Positions 18,278-52,075 of a stretch of 59,857 nucleotides of DNA are shown one piece after another. Within the stretch, counting starts at the first letter, position 1; each line of letters opens with the position of its first letter. The notes under the pieces were generated by a model. That model made no database searches. It was given only the letters and a program-made list of their open reading frames with translations, and was not told the DNA's origin. The position numbers were made by a program, and so were the translations under genes. This DNA comes from Candidatus Marinamargulisbacteria bacterium (GTDB lineage Bacteria > Margulisbacteria > Marinamargulisbacteria > UBA817), in assembly GCA_023262965.1 (NCBI GenBank), contig JALQXX010000005.1:1-59857 (forward strand), given 5' to 3'.

Positions 18278-18454
18278 TCCCAACCGATTGCCCTATCTTC
18301 CCCCTGTTTACTGTGCTTAATAGATTAAAAAAAATCGATGTTTTGATTCCCCATAAGGGCGGTATAACGAACTACAAGTTAAAATACAAAAAAAGGGAGG
18401 GTATTAAATCGTATTAACTTAGCTGGTTCAACAACTAAAGGGGGAAAATTAACC

Positions 18455-19159
18455 ATGAATCTAAAAAATAAATTGCTAACATCATTAGCAAGCAAAAAAG
18501 GAAATGCATTATTATTGGCGACAGCGGGTGCGATTGCGGCAACATTTAGTGTCTACTTCTTTGTGTCATTAACCACATTGAGTGACGACTCCAAACAACG
18601 TGTTGCGCATTTATACAATGCCTATCAAATGGGGCAATCGTTAAAAGCAAAAATTGATGGTGCCGACGTCAATCAAGCGCGATTGGGCAACAATATTGAA
18701 AAAGATATTGAAGCACCCATTGATGAGCTATTCCACAATGGGTCATACATCACGCTACAAGAAATGATTAAAAAAGCGGTTATTATTGCTGCAGATGACC
18801 CCACGGCAACCGCTCGAAGTGGAACGGATGTTGGGTATGACCTCGATAATTCCGGTGTATTGATTAAATACGCGGATTCAAGTGGGAATGTCATTACACC
18901 CGATTCCAACTCAACAGCGGTGGTGGCGGATGTTCACTTGTTTGTTAACCTGGCCGGAGCACCGGATGCTGACTCCAACAGCCCGTATGTGGATGGCGCA
19001 CCGTTCTACTACATCTTAATGGATGACTCGCAAGTAGCAACCACCGGATTAACCAAAACGGTCGACTTAGTCCAATTCCCTCAAGGAATTCTATCAACCG
19101 TCGATGGTGGTCCTCAAGCAGAGGTATCGGTAGTATTACCTCAGGATGACGAGGTATAG
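18455..19159 (+). CDS. Type IV pilin-like protein 1 (probable major subunit)
   Basis: KKG|NALLLATAGAIAATFSVYFF class III-like signal without Glu5; RBS TAAAGGGGGA at 18436-18445; followed by a strong hairpin. Confidence 0.7.
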   Translation: MNLKNKLLTSLASKKGNALLLATAGAIAATFSVYFFVSLTTLSDDSKQRVAHLYNAYQMGQSLKAKIDGADVNQARLGNNIEKDIEAPIDELFHNGSYITLQEMIKKAVIIAADDPTATARSGTDVGYDLDNSGVLIKYADSSGNVITPDSNSTAVVADVHLFVNLAGAPDADSNSPYVDGAPFYYILMDDSQVATTGLTKTVDLVQFPQGILSTVDGGPQAEVSVVLPQDDEV

Positions 19160-19191
19160 TATAACAACACCGTCGTAAGCAGTATTGAACG

Positions 19192-19218
19192 TGCCGTAGG
19201 CCCCCAGGGTCTACGGCA
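19192..19218 (+). terminator. 12-bp stem-loop without a U-tract after pilin 1
   Basis: TGCCGTAGGCCC-cca-GGGTCTACGGCA. Confidence 0.55.
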
Positions 19219-19253
19219 AACTTGAATATTGTTTAAAACGAAAGGGGGGAAAC

Positions 19254-19976
19254 ATGAAACAATTACTAACATTTTGTAAATGGTTTGTTACTGAAAATCG
19301 TGGGAATGCATTGTTGCTGACCAGTGCCACCGCCCTCATCGCAACCATGGGCATGTTCTTCTTTACCGCATTGCGTGACATGAGTGTCAAAAACAAAGAG
19401 CGTACCACCCATTTGTACAACGCCACCGTCATGGCCATGTCAATTGACACCTACATTGGGACGTATTTAGAAACGCTTCCTTACCCCAAAAACAGCCTGC
19501 TTCACAACGGCGAAGGCCAATTTAGCGCCTCCGAACTGGCCGATATCACGGGCATTCATGATTTTGATATACTCAGCTTAAGTGATCTCGAAAAAAATGG
19601 GTATATTGTATCGTACAACGATCCAACCGCCCTGCGCGAAGGGGGCCACGATAAACCCTACGATAAAAACGCCACAAAAATCAAAATTGAATTTGAATTA
19701 GACGATGTCAGTAAGGTCATTGGCATTCGTTATTTGGTTAATTTAGCCGGCGATGTTTACGAAGACAACGCCCCCTATAGCCCTGGTGAACCGTTTTTTT
19801 ATATTGTTAGCTTTTCCGATGACATTGACAGTGGCACATACGGTGATTACAACCTAACCGACAACGCGATTACCTTAACCACTGGTGAGGGCTACGCATT
19901 TGATACCATCTTAGAATCCAACGGTGAAGCACCCTACGCCGAGCGAACCGTTATTTTACCAGGAGATAACACGTAG
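19254..19976 (+). CDS. Type IV pilin-like protein 2 (paralog)
   Basis: NRG|NALLL; shares HLYNA, DPTA, LVNLAG and PF(F/Y)Y with its neighbours; LSLSDLEKNGYI resembles the ComGC-type pilin motif. Confidence 0.7.
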   Translation: MKQLLTFCKWFVTENRGNALLLTSATALIATMGMFFFTALRDMSVKNKERTTHLYNATVMAMSIDTYIGTYLETLPYPKNSLLHNGEGQFSASELADITGIHDFDILSLSDLEKNGYIVSYNDPTALREGGHDKPYDKNATKIKIEFELDDVSKVIGIRYLVNLAGDVYEDNAPYSPGEPFFYIVSFSDDIDSGTYGDYNLTDNAITLTTGEGYAFDTILESNGEAPYAERTVILPGDNT

Positions 19977-20740
19977 TGATAGCAACGATTCGACACCTAC
20001 TGGCTACCATTCGTCAATTTATCACCAGTCAAAAAGGAAACGCTCAGCTGCTAACAATGGCAGGTGCCATTGCAGGCACTATGGCCATTTACTTTTTTAT
20101 TAGCATCGCATCCCTAACCCAACAAGATAAAGAACGCGTAGCGCACTTGTACAATGCCTATCAAATGGGCCTAGCGGTGGATAGCATGATCAGCAATCGC
20201 ATTATGCTAAAAGGTGAAAACAACGTCAGCTTTAAAGACGAAGCCGGCGATTACCGGTTCACCAAAAATGACTTTGAAATGTACGTCCAAATGGAATCCG
20301 AAACCGAATTTACACTAGCCCAACTGGTTCATGAAAAGGTGTTGATGGAATCGCGTGACGCCACGGCATCACGCTTGTACGGCACCCCAACCAAATACGA
20401 CGAAACCCATACCACATTAAAAGTTATTTTTGATATGGTTGTCGATCGTTATGATGAAAATGGCGATGCCATTAAAATGGTTCGAGGCGTCCATTATTTG
20501 GTAAATTTAGCGGGACAATCCGTGGATCCCAGCACCGATCTAACCAACGATCCGTATAGTCCGGATATGCCATTTTACTATTTGGTTAGCTACGAAAATG
20601 AGCTGGCGGGATTAACCGAAGCGGATATTACATTAAAATACGACGGCATTAAATTTAAAAGCGTGCTGGATTCGAGCACCAATGGCGGAGGACCGCAAGC
20701 CCAACGGGTTATTATATTACCGGGCGACGTTGACAACTAA
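19976..20740 (+). CDS. Type IV pilin-like protein 3 (paralog)
   Basis: QKG|NAQLL; ERVAHLYNAYQMG, LVNLAG, PFYY and GPQA...LPGD shared with pilin 1. Confidence 0.7.
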   Translation: MIATIRHLLATIRQFITSQKGNAQLLTMAGAIAGTMAIYFFISIASLTQQDKERVAHLYNAYQMGLAVDSMISNRIMLKGENNVSFKDEAGDYRFTKNDFEMYVQMESETEFTLAQLVHEKVLMESRDATASRLYGTPTKYDETHTTLKVIFDMVVDRYDENGDAIKMVRGVHYLVNLAGQSVDPSTDLTNDPYSPDMPFYYLVSYENELAGLTEADITLKYDGIKFKSVLDSSTNGGGPQAQRVIILPGDVDN

Positions 20741-20783
20741 CTGAAGGATTACGGATGCATGATCGATAATCCTGGGGAGAGCT

Positions 20784-22016
20784 ATGTCTGCATTTTGGTA
20801 TAAATTTCGATATATCGATAAAAATGGAACAAAAAAAAGCGATACCCTTCGCGCACGCTCTATTCGGTCTGCCAAATATTACTTATTAAGTAAAAAATAC
20901 ACCATTACCCGTATTCGTCGAATGACGTCCCTTGAAATATACCTAATAAAATTCAATGAAACACCATTGTATCGACTCCTATTCAATCCCAAATTAACCC
21001 GCTATGAGGTCTATTGGCTCACCAAAGAATTGGCCAGCTTTCTGGAATCCGGACTTCCCTTGTTGGACGCCCTCATTGCGGTCAGAGGATTTAGCACCAA
21101 CAAACGGTACCAAAAAACCATTACAACGATTATTGATACGATTCAAATCGGAAAGCCGCTCTCCGCCGCCCTTGAAGCGTTTCCGAGTAGCTTTCCCCGT
21201 TACTATATTATTGCGGTAAAAAGCGGTGAAAAAATTGGTCGATTGGCCGAATCATTACGCTCCAACGCAGAAACCATTAACTGGGTCAATGTCAATCGGG
21301 GAAAAATTGTACAAGCCACGATATTTCCGATTATCAGTTTCATTATGATGGTCACATCATTTATTGTATCGCTACGTGTGTTGGTGCCCTATTTTATGAA
21401 AGTGCTGGGTCAAATGCGTGTGGAACCGCCCATGATTACCGCCAAAATGTTCCAGCTGAATGTGTTTTTAACCAAACATGGGGGCAGCATTTTAGTCGTT
21501 CTTAATGTCCTATTAATTGGCATTGCTGTGCTATCTTCCAACAAAAAGACCGGGTACTACATTGAGCGCGTTATTGTTAAATTGCCCATCTATGGCAGCC
21601 TTTATGTGTATTTTATGAGTACGTATTTATCCCAAATTCTGACCCTACTGATTAATCAACGGTATTCAATTTTGAACGCATTTTTATTATGCAAAGACCT
21701 CTTCAAAGGCCCCTTTTTCAATGCCGAAATGGCCATTATTTACGAAAAAATCAAAACCGGCTACAGCATTGGGCAATCCTTTGATGAATCAATTTTATTC
21801 CCCAAATTTATGGCCCAGCTCATTAAAGACGGGGAGCGCACCGGTACCCTCGACGATAAAATGAGTGCCATTGCGGATTTGTACAAAGCCCGATTGGAAA
21901 ACAAAGTGGAATGGGTGTTCAAAATGATATCCCCAGCCTACTTAGCCTTTACAATTGGGGTCACTGTATTTTTTATTTATGCGTTTTTTTGGCCCGTGTG
22001 GAATTTGTACTTTTAA
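20784..22016 (+). CDS. pilC: Type IV pilus/T2SS inner-membrane platform protein PilC/GspF
   Basis: LASFLESGLPLLDAL, GEKIGRL and GERTGTLD duplicated T2SSF domains with TM helices. Confidence 0.9.
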   Translation: MSAFWYKFRYIDKNGTKKSDTLRARSIRSAKYYLLSKKYTITRIRRMTSLEIYLIKFNETPLYRLLFNPKLTRYEVYWLTKELASFLESGLPLLDALIAVRGFSTNKRYQKTITTIIDTIQIGKPLSAALEAFPSSFPRYYIIAVKSGEKIGRLAESLRSNAETINWVNVNRGKIVQATIFPIISFIMMVTSFIVSLRVLVPYFMKVLGQMRVEPPMITAKMFQLNVFLTKHGGSILVVLNVLLIGIAVLSSNKKTGYYIERVIVKLPIYGSLYVYFMSTYLSQILTLLINQRYSILNAFLLCKDLFKGPFFNAEMAIIYEKIKTGYSIGQSFDESILFPKFMAQLIKDGERTGTLDDKMSAIADLYKARLENKVEWVFKMISPAYLAFTIGVTVFFIYAFFWPVWNLYF

Positions 22017-46330: not shown

Positions 46331-48691
46331 TTACGACCCCACACGGGGCTTAAATTGAACCTGCCCATCATCGGTAATCATCAAAGACGACTGAAACGAT
46401 TCACCGGAACGGGTTTTAAACCCATCCATATCATTCAATTCACGCGATGCCAATAATTCCTTGGCCTCATCAACTGTGATGGGGCGCGACGCAATTGTTT
46501 TCCAAATGACAAATCGGCATCCGGTATGTTTCCATTGATTGCAGGAATACGCTTTTGCTGTTTCCACAACCGATCCCGATTGGCATATCCTACACGTCCC
46601 CAACACAACCTGTTCAAATTGAAATCCAACTTTGCCATCCGCCACGATTAATCGGGCATCAAACGGTTCGCCGTTTGTGCGTTTAAACCCTTTAATAAGC
46701 TTGGTAGAACCCGTTTTAACCAATTGACGGGCTTGCGCCTCCGTGATGGCTTTTTTGGCCATTTGCTTCCATATAACAAACGAACAATTATCCGACTTCC
46801 AACGTGTACAACTATACGATTTTAGACGAGACACCACATGACCACTGTGACACAGGGGACAGGATCCCAAAATCACCTCATCTGACGACACCACATAATC
46901 CGTATTGTCTACAACTTTTTGAATCATATCTTTAGAAAATTGTTTAATGTCATTCATATAATCAATCCAACTCGCTTTTGACTGAGCAATATCATTTAAC
47001 GCTTTTTCCCAGCGACCTGTCAACTCCGCAGAAACCAACTCATCACTCAACATGCAATCAATTAAATACATCCCCTTTGGGGTTGGCACCAACGCATTTT
47101 TTTTTCGTTCAATATAGCAAACTGAAATCAACTTCTCTAAAATCTGCGCGCGTGTTGCGGGCGTTCCCAATCCACAATCCTTCATGGCCTGGCGCAAATC
47201 GTCATCATCCACAGACTTTCCCGCGGTTTCCATGGCCGCCAACACGGTCGCTTCAGTATACAAAGGAGGGGCCTTGGTTTTGCCTTTTTTAAGGTGAATA
47301 GCGGCAATATCAACGTTATCGCCAGCCATCACAGCGGGCAACAAAATGTCAGCGTCATGATCGGTTTTGGGGTACATCGTACGCCATCCCGGCGACACAA
47401 TCACCATTCCACTGGCCTTAAAGGATTCCGTCGCAATAGTCATGTGAATATCGGTGGACTGCTTATGACAAACCGGAAAAAAAGCCGCTAAAAACCGGCG
47501 AATAATCATGTCATAAATATGATTCTCCGACACCGACAGGTTCGCCATAACCGGTGATTTATTGGTGGGGATAATCGCATGATGGTCGGTTACTTTCCCA
47601 TCATCAATCATACGATCGGCAATCGTGTAACCATTGTCAATAATGGTTTGAGTCGCCTGAGAAAATTCCGGTAATTCCGACAATATCGTGATGTATTCTG
47701 GGCATTTAGGCGCAATATCCGTGGTTAAATATCGCGATGATGTTCGTGGATACGATACAATTTTATGAGTTTCATACAATGCCTGAATAACGGTTAAGGT
47801 GTAATCCGCTGAGTAATTGTAAAGTCGATTCGCATCTTTTTGTAAGGAGGTCAAATCATATAACAACGGCTGTTTTTCAGTAATTGTTTTTTGATCCAAT
47901 GCCGCAATGGTCGCCTTGGTTTCGTTTGCTAAGCGCTTGGACAGTTCCGTTGCGACCGATTCATCCAGTATACGACTGCCTTCATTTCCCATCCATTTGG
48001 CCTGAAACGCGCCATTAACATGGATCACATCGGCCAAAATCTCATAAAAATGGCTGGATTGAAAATCCTGATTAGCGCGATAGCGATCCACAATCATTTT
48101 TAATACCGGGGTTTGCACGCGCCCGACACTCATAACGCCACGGCCACGTGAAAATTTAATCGAGTACGCGCGTGTGGCATTGATGCCAACAATCCAATCG
48201 GCCTCTGAGCGCGCTCTAGCCGAATAATACAGTGGCAAATAATCATCACCATGCTTTAATTGGCGAAACCCATCCCGAATAGCCTCATCGGTTTGTGACG
48301 AAATCCACAGCCGTTTTATGGGAAGCGTGCATCCCGAATCCTCGTAAATAAGCCGAAAAATCAATTCCCCCTCACGCCCCGCATCCGTTGCACATACAAT
48401 GGATACCAAATCCGAACGACTCAGTAACCGCTTAACAATGGCATAATGATCTTTGGTGCGTTCAATCGGTTCACGACGAAATGTTTCAGGAATGATGGGT
48501 AATCGATCCAGCTGCCACTGTTCATAAAGGGGATCGTACGCATTTGGCTGACTCAATTCCAATAAATGACCCAAGGCCCAGGTAATAACGTACCCATTGC
48601 CCTCCAAAAACCCATCTCGCTTAGCGGACACATTCAAAACGCGTGCGATATCACGCGCGACGGATGGTTTCTCTGTTAGAATTAATTCCAT
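46331..48691 (-). CDS. topB: DNA topoisomerase III (type IA) with C-terminal Zn-ribbon repeats
   Basis: EKPSVA, DAGREGE, GRVQTP, YPRT, GLGTPATRA and two CxxC...C..FVIWK repeats. Confidence 0.95.
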   Translation of the reverse strand: MELILTEKPSVARDIARVLNVSAKRDGFLEGNGYVITWALGHLLELSQPNAYDPLYEQWQLDRLPIIPETFRREPIERTKDHYAIVKRLLSRSDLVSIVCATDAGREGELIFRLIYEDSGCTLPIKRLWISSQTDEAIRDGFRQLKHGDDYLPLYYSARARSEADWIVGINATRAYSIKFSRGRGVMSVGRVQTPVLKMIVDRYRANQDFQSSHFYEILADVIHVNGAFQAKWMGNEGSRILDESVATELSKRLANETKATIAALDQKTITEKQPLLYDLTSLQKDANRLYNYSADYTLTVIQALYETHKIVSYPRTSSRYLTTDIAPKCPEYITILSELPEFSQATQTIIDNGYTIADRMIDDGKVTDHHAIIPTNKSPVMANLSVSENHIYDMIIRRFLAAFFPVCHKQSTDIHMTIATESFKASGMVIVSPGWRTMYPKTDHDADILLPAVMAGDNVDIAAIHLKKGKTKAPPLYTEATVLAAMETAGKSVDDDDLRQAMKDCGLGTPATRAQILEKLISVCYIERKKNALVPTPKGMYLIDCMLSDELVSAELTGRWEKALNDIAQSKASWIDYMNDIKQFSKDMIQKVVDNTDYVVSSDEVILGSCPLCHSGHVVSRLKSYSCTRWKSDNCSFVIWKQMAKKAITEAQARQLVKTGSTKLIKGFKRTNGEPFDARLIVADGKVGFQFEQVVLGTCRICQSGSVVETAKAYSCNQWKHTGCRFVIWKTIASRPITVDEAKELLASRELNDMDGFKTRSGESFQSSLMITDDGQVQFKPRVGS

Positions 48692-48786
48692 ACCTACAAC
48701 CTTATCATAAAAGCATTGAATACACTATTCATCGTAGCCCTCAACTGATTTTATTTTATTACATTTAAAAATATCAATATAAAAGC

Positions 48787-48816
48787 TGAAAGCCGTCTGT
48801 ATACACCTACGATATA
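48787..48816 (+). promoter_or_regulatory. Bipartite motif TGAAAGCC-N14-ACGATATA, copy 1 (sigma28-like promoter candidate)
   Basis: Same boxes and spacing as 49000-49029, with an unrelated spacer. Confidence 0.55.
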
Positions 48817-48820
48817 CGGG

Positions 48821-48910
48821 TGTAAGGCGTATAATTGGCCTTACTCATTTACAAAGAAGAGCCCGCATGGCACCAGTGTCTCCCCCCTTTATCTGTTGCC
48901 CGGGCTCTTC
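48821..48910 (+). ncRNA. Candidate sRNA 1 (two hairpins, C-rich loop); strand inferred
   Basis: P1 GTAAGGC/GCCTTAC; P2 GAAGAGCCCG/CGGGCTCTTC with inner GGCACCAG/CTGTTGCC; loop TGTCTCCCCCCTTTAT. Confidence 0.6.
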
Positions 48911-48999
48911 GTCACTAACCGAATCTGTGATCGTGTAATCAAAAAACACAGGCACTAAGACCGTATAGAATATCCCTATAATAAAAAAATAAATTAGTG

Positions 49000-49029
49000 T
49001 GAAAGCCCCCCCGCTAACCAAACGATATA
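49000..49029 (+). promoter_or_regulatory. Bipartite motif TGAAAGCC-N14-ACGATATA, copy 2
   Basis: Matches 48787-48816 in both boxes and spacing. Confidence 0.55.
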
Positions 49030-49032
49030 TAC

Positions 49033-49118
49033 TGTAAGGCGTTATGCCTTCCTCTTAACAAGAGCCCACATAATGTACAAAAATCTCTCTCCCCCTTTAT
49101 GTTTTTGTACGTGGGCTC
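49033..49118 (+). ncRNA. Candidate sRNA 2 (paralog of sRNA 1); strand inferred
   Basis: P1 AAGGC/GCCTT; P2 GAGCCCAC/GTGGGCTC with inner GTACAAAAAT/GTTTTTGTAC; loop CTCTCTCCCCCTTTAT. Confidence 0.6.
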
Positions 49119-49145
49119 ATCCCCTCTTCGGATTATTTAACGGTA

Positions 49146-51449
49146 TCAGGGACGTACAGATACCACATTGTGCGACTCTCGCAATTGTTTTGCGGAGGTA
49201 ATCATGTGCGTCAAGGCATCTTTGACTTCCGGCCAGCCACGGGTTTTTAATCCACAATCTGGATTGACCCAAATATGCTCTACAGGCAGTAATTTGGTGG
49301 CTTTTTTAAGTAAGTCTGACATGCTTTCAACCGTTGGAACACGGGGAGAGTGAATGTCATACACACCCGGTCCCACATCATTGGGGTAATTAAACTTAAC
49401 AAACGCGTCCAACAAGGCCATATGCGATCGTGAGGTTTCGATCGAAATAACATCGGCATCCATACGTGCGATGGCTTCGATAATATCATTAAATTCAGAA
49501 TAACACATATGGGTATGAATTTGAGTAGAGTCCATAACCCCACCCGTAACCAATCGGAACGTATCCACCGCCCATCGCAAATAGGCATCCCAGTCGGATA
49601 CATGAACCGGCAACCCTTCCCGCAATGCGGCTTCGTCAATTTGAATCATGCCAATTCCCGCTTTTTCCAAATCACAAACCTCATCTCGAATCGCCAAGGC
49701 AATTTGCATTGCGGTATCCTTTCGAGGCTGATCATCCCGAACAAAACTCCATTGTAGAATGGTTACAGGACCCGTCAACATCCCTTTCATGGGCTTTACG
49801 GTCAACGATTGCGCAAATACCGACCAATCCACTGTCATGGGCTTGGGACGCGAAACATCCCCAAAAATAATGGGGGGTTTCACACAACGTGACCCATAAC
49901 TTTGAACCCAACCATAGCTGGTAAATGCAAATCCATTCAACTGCTCCCCAAAGTACTCCACCATATCGTTTCGTTCAAACTCACCATGGACCAAAACATC
50001 CAGCCCAATGTCTTCTTGAAAAGCAACCGCATCTCGAATCTGATCTTTTAAAAATGATTCATATTCGTTAGCCGATAACCCGCCATTTTTAAAATCACGT
50101 CGCGCTTTTCGAACAGCATCCGTTTGGGGGAAAGACCCGATGGTTGTTGTCGGAAACACGGGCAAATTAAACAATTGTTTTTGTTTGATACTACGATCTG
50201 AAAAACCGGATGAACGCACATAATCCAGAGGCTTAATCTGCGACAAACGGGTTTTAACCGCATTATTATGAATAAGCGCGGATGTTTTTCGACCATTCTG
50301 AACCGCACGATTCGCCCCCAATGCATCCGCTGATGGGTCGGCAAACCCCGTTACAATATCGACTAATTCATGGACTTTTTCATCTGCAAATACCAGCCAT
50401 TGTTTAATCGATTCATCAATATCGGTTTCGTTTGCCAATGTTACAGGAACATGCAATAACGAACATGATGTGGCAACCACAATCCGATCGGGGGATATGA
50501 CAGCCTGTGCTCGCTGAATTTTTTGAATGGTATCGTCATACGCATTCACCCAAATGTTTCGTCCATTAACCACCCCCAAAGACAACTGCTTATCGGCTGG
50601 AAAACCGGCTAAAACCGTTTCAAACGATGTCGACAATCGCGTTACATCAACGTGAATACTATAAACCGGCAAGCTATATACTAACGATTGATTATCCCGC
50701 AAATCCCCAAAATACGTGGTTAAATGCAATCGAACAGACGATGCCGCTGCGATGGCATCATACGCACGCTTAAATCCCTCCTTTTGCGTATTATTTAATT
50801 TTGTAACCGCAATTGGCTCATCTATTTGAATGTCGGTCACCCCGATCGCTTCAAATTGCTTGAGTATGTCACCATACACCGCTATTAATTTATCCAGCAA
50901 CGCCCACTTGTTTGATCCATCTGTGGATTTTCCAATGCTGAGGTATGTTAAAGGGCCCACAATAACCGGACGTGTATCAACACCCCATTTTTTGGCCTCC
51001 TTATAGGCATCAAATGGGGTGGTGGTTGTTAAAGAAAACTCCGTAGCCTCATCAAACTCGGGAACAATATAATGGTAATTGGTATCAAACCACTTGGTCA
51101 TTTCAGCCGCATATTGATTATTCGACGAGTCCTTGGTGTTTCCACGTGCTATTGAAAAATACAGATCCAAATCAACCGGACCGGATACATACCCAAATCG
51201 CGGCGGAATATTCCCAATAAAACAGCTAAAGTCCAATATCTGGTCGTAATATGAAAAATCATTGGACGGAATATAGCGAATACCCGCTTTTTTCTGATAA
51301 TCCCAATTGCGTTTTCGTATCGTCGCGCCAACCTGATGCAAATCATCAGCTGAAATGTCACCGCGCCAATACGACTCCAATGCACGCTTTAACTCTCGAT
51401 TGGCTCCCATACGGGGATACCCCAGTATCGCTGTTGATAATGTTGTCAT
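49146..51449 (-). CDS. metE: Cobalamin-independent methionine synthase
   Basis: MTKWFDTNYHY, IHTHMCYSEF and WVNPDCGLKTR motifs. Confidence 0.98.
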   Translation of the reverse strand: MTTLSTAILGYPRMGANRELKRALESYWRGDISADDLHQVGATIRKRNWDYQKKAGIRYIPSNDFSYYDQILDFSCFIGNIPPRFGYVSGPVDLDLYFSIARGNTKDSSNNQYAAEMTKWFDTNYHYIVPEFDEATEFSLTTTTPFDAYKEAKKWGVDTRPVIVGPLTYLSIGKSTDGSNKWALLDKLIAVYGDILKQFEAIGVTDIQIDEPIAVTKLNNTQKEGFKRAYDAIAAASSVRLHLTTYFGDLRDNQSLVYSLPVYSIHVDVTRLSTSFETVLAGFPADKQLSLGVVNGRNIWVNAYDDTIQKIQRAQAVISPDRIVVATSCSLLHVPVTLANETDIDESIKQWLVFADEKVHELVDIVTGFADPSADALGANRAVQNGRKTSALIHNNAVKTRLSQIKPLDYVRSSGFSDRSIKQKQLFNLPVFPTTTIGSFPQTDAVRKARRDFKNGGLSANEYESFLKDQIRDAVAFQEDIGLDVLVHGEFERNDMVEYFGEQLNGFAFTSYGWVQSYGSRCVKPPIIFGDVSRPKPMTVDWSVFAQSLTVKPMKGMLTGPVTILQWSFVRDDQPRKDTAMQIALAIRDEVCDLEKAGIGMIQIDEAALREGLPVHVSDWDAYLRWAVDTFRLVTGGVMDSTQIHTHMCYSEFNDIIEAIARMDADVISIETSRSHMALLDAFVKFNYPNDVGPGVYDIHSPRVPTVESMSDLLKKATKLLPVEHIWVNPDCGLKTRGWPEVKDALTHMITSAKQLRESHNVVSVRP

Positions 51450-51592
51450 AATACTCCTCTTTCAGTCAATTTACTGGTCTCAGTTTACCGTATATTCTAA
51501 CGGCTTACAACCAACATATGGCCCGCCATCTGTTTTCACTCAACTTAGGTATCATATGGATCGATACACTAAAAGCAGCAAACGAATTCCTC

Positions 51593-52075
51593 ATGATTGT
51601 AGCCAAAAACACTGTTGTATACATTGCATTCACAATAACCGACAATAATTCAAATATATTGGATAAAACCCAATGCCCCCTCCCCGTTATTATTGGGCAA
51701 AATCATATGCTTCCTGTTATTGAATCGGCATTAATCGGACACTCAGCGAATGCCTGCATTACCCTAACCATTGACCCCCATGAGGGATTTGGTATGGTTA
51801 ATGCCGCCCGAATTATTACGGTACCATTGAATCAGTTGCCCGATCCAAATAGCCCCATCAACACCGAAGTGATCCTACCGATGGATACCAACACCGGTAC
51901 CCAACCCCTATACGGACGTATTATTGCACGATCCACTAATACCGCTCAAATTGATTTTAACCACCCACTTGCCGGAAAACAATTGCACTACACCATAACC
52001 ATTTGCGATATCCGCAACCAAACCCCTGAAGAAATAGACACCGGATTACTCGCCGATTGGGCCCATTTGGATTAA
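51593..52075 (+). CDS. slyD: FKBP-type peptidyl-prolyl isomerase (SlyD-like)
   Basis: MIVAKNTVV start and DFNHPLAGKQL; no His-rich tail. Confidence 0.85.
   Translation: MIVAKNTVVYIAFTITDNNSNILDKTQCPLPVIIGQNHMLPVIESALIGHSANACITLTIDPHEGFGMVNAARIITVPLNQLPDPNSPINTEVILPMDTNTGTQPLYGRIIARSTNTAQIDFNHPLAGKQLHYTITICDIRNQTPEEIDTGLLADWAHLD

Follow-up and report, generated by a model that had tools for sequence, protein, structure and literature searches.

We have analysed a window of 59,857 nucleotides (nt) from Candidatus Marinamargulisbacteria bacterium (the whole of the stretch from GenBank assembly GCA_023262965.1, contig JALQXX010000005.1), and our results concern the 454-nt gap that separates the genes topB and metE (48692-49145), both of which lie on the minus strand. 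This gap carries two units of ~125 nt, at 48785-48914 (unit 1) and 48998-49122 (unit 2), which very probably belong to a family of structured small RNAs (sRNAs) read from the plus strand. The best explanation for the whole, to which we give a probability of roughly 0.6, is that the units would be sibling trans-acting sRNAs, expressed from a promoter of the alternative-sigma type and using a poly-C loop to pair with Shine-Dalgarno regions. If the plus-strand family is granted, the chances of the pairing mechanism itself appear to us about even.

We propose that the units may be two sibling genes of one new sRNA family, each giving an RNA of ~90 nt that is antisense in direction to both neighbours, and each with its own promoter of an alternative-sigma type, TG(A/C)AA-N17/18-CGATA(A/T). 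The transcript would run from a short hairpin through a C/U-rich single-stranded linker into a long hairpin at the end of the RNA, and this terminal hairpin would display a 14-16-nt loop with five to eight C flanked by U's. The loop, perhaps together with the C-rich linker and tail, would pair with G-rich Shine-Dalgarno regions and block translation without Hfq. From their sequence, the units are predicted to be transcribed in this organism. A first-pass annotation, made from the letters of the window, had read them as plus-strand structured RNAs with covarying stems, a C-rich loop and no Rfam family, and on these points the comparative evidence given below agrees with it, whereas the pairing with Shine-Dalgarno regions, which it also put forward, is something that we too infer.

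Two units with one layout

Re-reading of 48787-49118 confirmed the earlier description of two units built on one plan, namely a promoter-like box, a small 5′ hairpin, a linker and a long bipartite hairpin with a 16-nt C-rich loop (Table 1). In both units the box is TGAAAG-N16-ACGATATA, the small hairpin (TAAGGC...GCCTT) starts 5-6 nt downstream of it, and the long hairpin consists of an outer stem with the core GAGCCC/GGGCTC, a 3-5-nt bulge on the 5′ side beginning with CAT, an inner stem and the loop, which ends in CCCCCUUUAU. The outer stems of the two units differ by an exchange of G-C to A-U, and the inner stems have almost no sequence in common, yet they pair in both. On the plus strand unit 1 folds with -37.9 kcal/mol (z -5.45) and unit 2 with -27.6 kcal/mol (z -6.51), and in either case none of 200 shuffled sequences folded as well. 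The transcript of unit 1 is predicted to start directly upstream of its 5′ hairpin (48822). The genome to which the window belongs (G000) is a 1.46-Mb assembly of 114 contigs, 46% G+C and 94.8% complete, and the contigs of three DNA runs match the sequence of the window wherever they cover the gap.

Homologues, copy number and genomic context

The units match no known RNA family, as the first-pass annotation had supposed: the covariance models of Rfam 15 found three transfer RNAs (tRNAs) in the window and left the gap empty on either strand. The region 48600-49250, compared with Rfam at E<=10, gave a single chance match to a microRNA (14.1 bits versus 71.8), and the homologous loci of six relatives gave, at E<=1, one chance match to a small nucleolar RNA, located elsewhere in the loci. 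BLAST with a 339-nt query stretch recovered only the query itself from its own genome (other matches E>=1.5), and in 40 relatives only two short chance matches to an A+T-rich spacer; the homologues were detected only with covariance models.

MAFFT misaligned units 1 and 2, and the first covariance model was therefore seeded from unit 1 alone. Run over the whole window with the filters off, it found unit 2 at 31.5 bits (E 4.7e-5), the sole other match below E=0.01 (the next had an E of 0.62). A model of units 1 and 2 (R2) found one or two copies in three of the five sister-genus genomes (E 2e-10 to 4e-8) and none in the remaining 49 genomes of the class Marinamargulisbacteria; with the covariance models taken together, homologues are present in four of the five. 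A pattern drawn from the R2 copies led to six metagenome contigs, five of them confirmed by the model and the sixth cut by the contig end, and also recovered three sister-genus records from the species collection. The pattern also matched an Oscillospiraceae genome (L022), but the model failed to confirm this match, which we took as chance.

With a per-genome threshold of E<=0.1, model R3, which has 16 rows, matched 31 of the phylum's 146 genomes, 16 of them at E<1e-3. These 16 all belong to the class Marinamargulisbacteria, with ~0.15 false genomes expected; this is the outcome of the check that the first-pass annotation had proposed, a covariance model searched against related genomes. The matches number one to five per genome. 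Tandem copies occur in G033 (five matches at ~120-nt spacing in L035) and in G003, L020 and the window (two each), and dispersed additional copies in G001 and G002. Outside the class the matches are marginal (E 0.007-0.085), and since four of them, in genus g57 of another class (E 0.007-0.08), have the same box and two poly-C-loop hairpins, the family probably reaches beyond the class. Two marginal matches without a C-run (L052 and L054) were set aside, being probably only the promoter box.

Copy number bears on the idea that the units act as DNA, for instance as the remnant of a mobile repeat (a repetitive extragenic palindrome, REP, or a miniature inverted-repeat transposable element, MITE), as a recombination site or as a protein-binding palindrome. 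Their arms are indeed palindromic, and some genomes have tandem or multiple copies. For the genome of the window, however, the count is two whether taken from BLAST, the motif or model R3, with none of the many dispersed copies that the first-pass annotation had named as a sign of REP or MITE; the arrangement GAGCCC...GGGCTC is found at these two sites only, four other TGTAAGGCGT sites being unrelated sequence. Because there are only two copies in 1.46 Mb, the units are not a repeat of that kind. No terminal repeats or target duplications were seen, the syntenic placement is kept across genera, and the arms covary around a fixed loop in a unit that is asymmetric, with its box on one side only, all of which makes a DNA-level element extremely improbable.

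In the sister genus the order is metE, a pseudouridine synthase gene, the element on the opposite strand, an FMN reductase gene and Smr. The element remains near metE but adjoins different genes, always convergent with the downstream gene and divergent from the upstream one. Such changing neighbours within a stable vicinity speak for the vertical inheritance of a free-standing gene, and against the leader or 3′ untranslated region of a particular gene. A separate observation was made at locus L012 (G002:C51), in which ~740 nt just upstream of the sRNA gene (1628-2368), where the relatives have the FMN reductase, contain no open reading frame (ORF) of 70 amino acids (aa) or longer; this stretch may be a decayed gene or hold further non-coding features.

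Conservation of structure and loop

Eleven copies were aligned with MAFFT, which is blind to structure, and from this alignment RNAalifold predicted both hairpins again, the small one and the long bipartite one. Here 91.0% of the cells were paired (79.7% with shuffled partners), 14 of the 20 pairs had changed on both sides (4.4 expected; none of 500 shuffles was as high), and sliding the partners by 1-3 columns left only 36-57% pairing. A second alignment, of 41 copies, was fitted to the covariance model and is hence biased its way; in it 87.7% of the cells were paired (54.4% when shuffled), double-change cells numbered 270 (82 when shuffled), and the covariation score was 0.618 where shuffling gave 0.157 (0/500). 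The loop has a run of five to eight C in 39 of the 41 copies, with the consensus GUU-C5-8-UUA, and this run is unpaired in nearly all single-sequence folds. We conclude from the alignments that the RNA structure is under selection, its stems covarying strongly and its loop fixed. The claim that the inner stems of the two units differ but pair was borne out by folding, and that of covarying stems with a conserved, exposed C-rich loop by the alignments and the single-sequence folds. A conserved unpaired C-rich motif on variable stems, which is what the copies have, is also what marks a C-rich-loop sRNA.

The same 41 copies can be asked whether the units encode small proteins, for example a toxin of type I, or a leader peptide rich in proline whose frame passes through the C-run. 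ATG frames do run across the loop, of 23 codons in unit 1 and 42 in unit 2, both reading S-P-P, and type I toxin-antitoxin systems typically have several copies in tandem. A frame opening with ATG, GTG or TTG, however, crosses the C-run in only 18 of the 41 copies on the plus strand (seven with ATG) and in 17 on the minus strand, with no peptide or frame in common, and the length of the C-run differs by single bases between close relatives. No conserved small ORF was found on either strand, and none of the conserved hydrophobic kind that a type I toxin-antitoxin system has. A coding role is, like a role as DNA, extremely improbable.

Promoter box and strand

The box T[GA][AC]AA-N17/18-CGATA[ATG] is present in 39 of the 41 copies, at a fixed distance from the structure and on one side of it, while the spacer between its halves is free. 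The -35 part is TGAAA (29 copies), TGCAA (9) or TACAA (1), often followed by a T-run, and the -10 part is nnCGATA[AT] in 38 of the 41 copies and CGATAG in one; the spacing is 17 in 16 copies and 18 in 23. In G000, TG[AC]AA-N18-CGATA[ATG] occurs 17 times, against 7.8 in shuffled sequence. Eleven of these occurrences lie outside long ORFs: two are the sRNA units, and each of the other nine is followed, 9-114 nt downstream, by an ORF on the same strand that has a Shine-Dalgarno sequence, for which reason we consider that the box acts like a promoter. Behind the nine boxes are the gene of an RpoD-like sigma factor, with two tandem boxes, and seven ORFs, six without a Pfam family above threshold and one with a U-box domain, and the nine sites suggest that an alternative sigma factor governs a small regulon. 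The tRNA genes of the genome have ordinary TTGnnn-N17-TAnnnT promoters, unlike the sRNA box. Each unit would therefore have a promoter of its own, as an independent sRNA gene should, judging by its bases.

The U-box protein (C114:24093-25349, plus strand; locus L064) has 418 aa, and its domain is of the eukaryote type (PF04564, 28.6 bits versus a cut-off of 21.4). U-box domains occur in secreted ubiquitin-ligase mimics of host-associated bacteria, and the protein may hint at a host-linked life-style of this estuarine organism.

The nearest described promoter is that of sigma-28, with the consensus TAAAGTTT-N11-GCCGATAA (table in PMC2859248). The copies contain the -10 element GCCGATAA, with the core CGATA(A/T) and an invariant CG before ATA(A/T), and the spacing to the A-rich -35 fits N11-N12; their -35 box is, however, TG(A/C)AA(T) and not TAAAG, and TGAAA, TGCAA and TACAA match TAAAGTTT in part, so that the fit is a partial one. 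Sigma-28-dependent sRNAs have reportedly been found in E. coli. The genome of the window has six genes of the sigma-70 family: two RpoD-like, one group-2-like, one SigB/F/G-like (220.8 bits, under the cut-off of 234), one of the FliA/WhiG type and a weaker FliA-like one. In the phylum, FliA is over the NCBIfam cut-off in 22 of 146 genomes, and an assignment to sigma-28 by co-occurrence failed, FliA not being present wherever the promoter is. Given this distribution, the partial fit of the -35 box and the sigma-70 alternative mentioned below, we speak of an alternative-sigma-type promoter and name no sigma factor. The FliA/WhiG-type gene itself (C39:81426-82205, plus strand; locus L065, 5427-6206; TIGR02479, 223.7 bits versus a cut-off of 189.6) is placed after lysS-secD-secF and not among flagellar genes. 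No flagellin gene was found in G000, and the text of a paper on the metabolism of Margulisbacteria (PMC6349859) is without flagell-, motil-, pili or sigma.

The strand cannot be told from folding energy, because the minus strand gains G.U pairs; its fold is the more stable one in 8 of 11 family copies. We place the units on the plus strand because the box has a fixed side, behaves like a promoter in the genome and, in other families of the class, shares its strand with U-runs. On the promoter strand at least five T follow within 14 nt of the long hairpin in 8 of the 41 copies, all of them from those other families, and in three further copies the U-run lies partly within the modelled stem, whereas the run of at least five A before the long hairpin that the opposite strand would need is found in 2 of the 41. 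The plus strand had earlier been read off the upstream motif, and the conservation of the box and the U-runs on its strand in other families now support that choice.

Candidate targets

The 3′ end of the 16S ribosomal RNA of G000 is CACCUCCUUU, and the usual Shine-Dalgarno sequences are AAGGAG (98) and GGAGG (129), among 1421 crude gene starts. Ten contiguous bases complementary to a loop were found in only two of 1398 crude translation-start regions, and these belong to adjacent paralogues, the genes that start at 19254 and 18455. In all five relatives the orthologues have ribosome-binding sites of the AAAGGGGG type, an A-run followed by a G-run, in 10 of the 11 cases read, the exception being AGGAGG in G004. 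We regard the genes at 18455 and 19254 as the best candidate targets in this genome, a choice that rests on adjacency, paralogy and conservation and not on statistics, since shuffled loops find matches of equal length. The genome, 94.8% complete, yielded no Hfq and no CsrA.

These two genes are the first of a tandem array of three paralogues coding for 234-254 aa (18455-22016, plus strand), upstream of a T2SS-F/PilC-type gene, and their unusual AAAGGGGG(G) ribosome-binding sites are kept across the family. The array proteins have a prepilin-like N-terminus (KKGNALLL) and weak pilin-like Atlas neighbours (0.88-0.91), from which scores alone the label 'pilin-like' is taken, and no Pfam or NCBIfam family.

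A wider picture, which we consider unlikely, is that the family may be the RNA arm of an alternative-sigma regulon conserved in Marinamargulisbacteria, whose promoter would drive, in G000, several orphan proteins, the U-box protein being one of them, and a second RpoD-like sigma factor. In it, the twins would have diverged by one C, each coming to match one pilin-like paralogue (with six or five G), as duplicates that track duplicated targets, and would couple surface filaments to a change in life-style, perhaps to contact with a host.

Weight of the evidence and other readings

Several findings weigh against trans-acting sRNAs with an alternative-sigma promoter and a pairing loop. As to the promoter, only 7 of the 16 genomes that match the sRNA strongly have a FliA that passes the cut-off, which leaves 9 without one, and a sigma-70 reading of the box (TTGAAA, a spacer of 18-19, GATAAT) is possible. 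As to the RNA, the long hairpin lacks a plus-strand U-run in the window and its family (CUCUUCGUC, CUCAUCCCC, CCCUUCCCAC), and within the window itself the minus strand has the better U-runs. No transcript covered the gap in one RNA run that contains sequence of the organism, whose contigs are strandless and in which a lack of cover is no evidence of silence. As to the targets, ranking by duplex energy did no better with the real loop than with shuffled ones (326 regions at <=-14 kcal/mol versus 320-354), and shuffled loops, too, find runs of 9-11 contiguous matches at some place in the genome. The conservation of the G-run sites may reflect no more than their use as ribosome-binding sites, and the pilin-like paralogues occur in 6 of 55 genomes of the class, in this family only, and so cannot be the general targets of the sRNA family. 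Energy ranking is, for a C-rich loop, of no use, as the equal performance of shuffled loops indicates, and we give more weight to exact complementarity. The RNA run in question, metatranscriptome X5, contains a 245-nt contig identical to metE 49565-49809, which shows that an RNA library does contain this organism or a very close relative.

The lack of specificity in the energy ranking would also suit another reading of a real plus-strand family, in which the RNAs titrate a protein that recognises the poly-C loop instead of pairing with mRNAs, much as CsrB and RsmZ titrate CsrA through GGA loops. A short seed would need much less conservation than this loop sequence shows, and in 39 of the 41 copies the loop sits on a long and stable stem; there are several copies per genome, and the two C-rich loops per RNA in the distant L047 and L055-L057 recall decoys with multiple sites. 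No candidate for a regulator that binds poly-C emerged, although no search aimed at one was made; one or two sites per RNA are few, and known C-rich-loop sRNAs act by pairing, according to parts of PMC6158497 and PMC3771888. We judge a protein decoy unlikely.

The missing U-run raises a further question, that is, whether the RNAs are read through the hairpin into the 3′ end of the convergent gene, here metE, and lower its expression by collision or by duplex formation. The plus-strand tail in the window's family is CUUCCCAC or similar and has no U-run, 28 nt separate the end of unit 2 from the metE stop, both in the window and in G001-G003 the element and the gene that follows it are convergent, and the locus remains near metE. 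But the convergent gene varies (metE here, the pseudouridine synthase gene in G001-G003), G001 and G002 have additional copies at other places, other families have a canonical terminator in this hairpin, and the conserved loop would be left unexplained. Such cis antisense action therefore seems to us quite improbable, more so than a decoy. In this stretch of the genome canonical terminators are not enriched (23 found versus 22.9 expected).

The U-runs of the minus strand, to which the first-pass annotation had also drawn attention, could mean that the hairpins serve that strand as terminators of metE or as stability elements of its 3′ untranslated region, the box being an unrelated conserved site. 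In the window UUCUUUGU and UUGUUAAG do follow the minus-strand hairpins, the two flanking genes lie on that strand, and the minus folds are nearly as stable as the plus ones, or more stable in the 8 of 11 family copies already mentioned. In the relatives, however, these U-runs are missing (GGCCCUUCUAAAGG, GGCCCUUCGAAGG), and across the 41 copies it is the plus strand that more often has a run on the proper side of the hairpin (8 versus 2). A terminator does not need the conserved loop, the far-side box at fixed distance in 39 copies would be unexplained, and two consecutive terminators, each with a small hairpin and a box, would be odd. We hold this reading to be highly improbable.

Relation to known systems

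The plus-strand family appears to be a new one of a known functional kind, and by descent it is, on the searches described, none of the known C-rich or CU-loop families. According to parts of PMC6158497 and PMC5419742, RsaE/RoxS of the Bacillota is small and Hfq-independent, pairs unpaired C-rich motifs with G-rich ribosome-binding regions and is conserved over a large taxon. The present RNAs resemble it in size, in their unpaired C-rich motif, in the absence of a detected Hfq in G000, in being conserved over a wide taxon and, putatively, in pairing. They differ in having no Rfam match and one run of five to eight C in the terminal loop, versus several UCCC motifs there, and in their phylum, their promoter and their several copies per genome.

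In sX13 of Xanthomonas, as described in part of PMC3771888, C-rich motifs lie in the loops of stem-loops and act on G-rich mRNA leaders. The present family likewise shows its C-rich motif in a hairpin loop, but it has no sequence or model match to sX13 and one main loop. Three loops with short C motifs and a single-copy gene are reportedly what sX13 has.

Sibling or multi-copy sRNAs with pyrimidine-rich loops are also known (PMC4615179, in part). With AbcR1/2, 'cuckoo' (ar14), LhrC1-5, the streptococcal csRNAs and the neisserial twin sRNAs our family shares tandem or multi-copy genes, own promoters and a conserved pyrimidine-rich loop, and it differs from them in lacking a match to any Rfam model and in its homopolymeric C-run with U flanks. 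All these RNAs come from multiple near-identical genes with their own promoters and have a CU-rich anti-Shine-Dalgarno loop.

Margulisbacteria are an uncultured sister lineage of Cyanobacteria, and full-text searches, which did not extend to supplementary files, found no work on their regulatory RNAs. The family would be the first sRNA family defined for this phylum, and with it come target candidates that can be tested, a clean covariance model and a promoter by which a small regulon can be recognised. If the pairing is true, the occlusion of ribosome-binding sites by a poly-C loop would have arisen in yet another phylum without Hfq.

Feature positions and neighbouring genes

Table 1. Features of the topB-metE gap, candidate target sites and further promoter-like boxes of G000 (positions in the window unless another sequence is named).
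Feature	Position	Strand	Remarks
A+T-rich block AAATATCAATATAAAA	48766-48784	+	upstream of unit 1; similar block in relatives (ATTTCxATxTAT); putative role
Unit 1 -35-like box TGAAAG	48787-48792	+	T[GA][AC]AA kept in 39/41 aligned copies
Unit 1 -10-like box ACGATATA	48809-48816	+	core CGATAT 48810-48815, 18 nt past TGAAA
Unit 1 5′ hairpin GTAAGGC/GCCTTAC	48822-48828/48838-48844	+	7 bp, 9-nt loop
Unit 1 long bipartite hairpin	48856-48910	+	folding, alignments
Unit 1 outer stem GAAGAGCCCG/CGGGCTCTTC	48856-48865/48901-48910	+	
Unit 1 bulge CAU (CAT in DNA)	48866-48868	+	
Unit 1 inner stem GGCACCAG/CTGTTGCC	48869-48876/48893-48900	+	one C.T mismatch
Unit 1 16-nt loop UGUCUCCCCCCUUUAU	48877-48892	+	proposed seed
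Unit 2 -35-like box TGAAAG	49000-49005	+	
Unit 2 -10-like box ACGATATA	49022-49029	+	
Unit 2 5′ hairpin AAGGC/GCCTT	49036-49040/49046-49050	+	5 bp, 5-nt loop
Unit 2 long bipartite hairpin	49062-49118	+	5-nt bulge; folding
Unit 2 outer stem GAGCCCAC/GTGGGCTC	49062-49069/49111-49118	+	
Unit 2 inner stem GTACAAAAAT/GTTTTTGTAC	49075-49084/49101-49110	+	last pair U.G
Unit 2 16-nt loop CUCUCUCCCCCUUUAU	49085-49100	+	proposed seed
Candidate target site TAAAGGGGGA	18430-18457	+	ribosome-binding site of pilin-like gene 18455-19159; five G; 10 nt perfect to unit 2 loop (five C)
Candidate target site AAAGGGGGGA	19230-19256	+	ribosome-binding site of paralogue 19254-19976; six G; 10 nt perfect to unit 1 loop (six C)
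topB (DNA topoisomerase III)	46331-48691	-	TIGR01056, 622 bits vs cut-off 516; divergent from unit 1
metE (cobalamin-independent methionine synthase)	49146-51449	-	TIGR01371, 1078 bits vs cut-off 930; convergent with both units
ORF-proximal box	C23:15355-15383	-	
ORF-proximal box	C25:12086-12114	+	
ORF-proximal box	C31:366-394	-	
ORF-proximal box	C39:382-410	-	
ORF-proximal box	C47:7539-7567	-	
ORF-proximal box	C61:21164-21192	-	
ORF-proximal box	C61:21250-21278	-	
ORF-proximal box	C66:991-1019	-	
ORF-proximal box	C114:24039-24067	+	

Upstream of metE, Rfam at gathering scores found no riboswitch, and an ORF of 185 aa without a Pfam family (51518-52075, plus strand) is divergent from that gene. 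On the other side of the gap, the best sigma-70-like candidate promoter of topB, TTGATA-18-TAAAAT (10/12), lies at 48777-48748 on the minus strand, back to back with the box of unit 1, and its TTGATA falls within the A+T-rich block, which is similar in relatives. The divergent promoters of topB and unit 1 may have a common control region.

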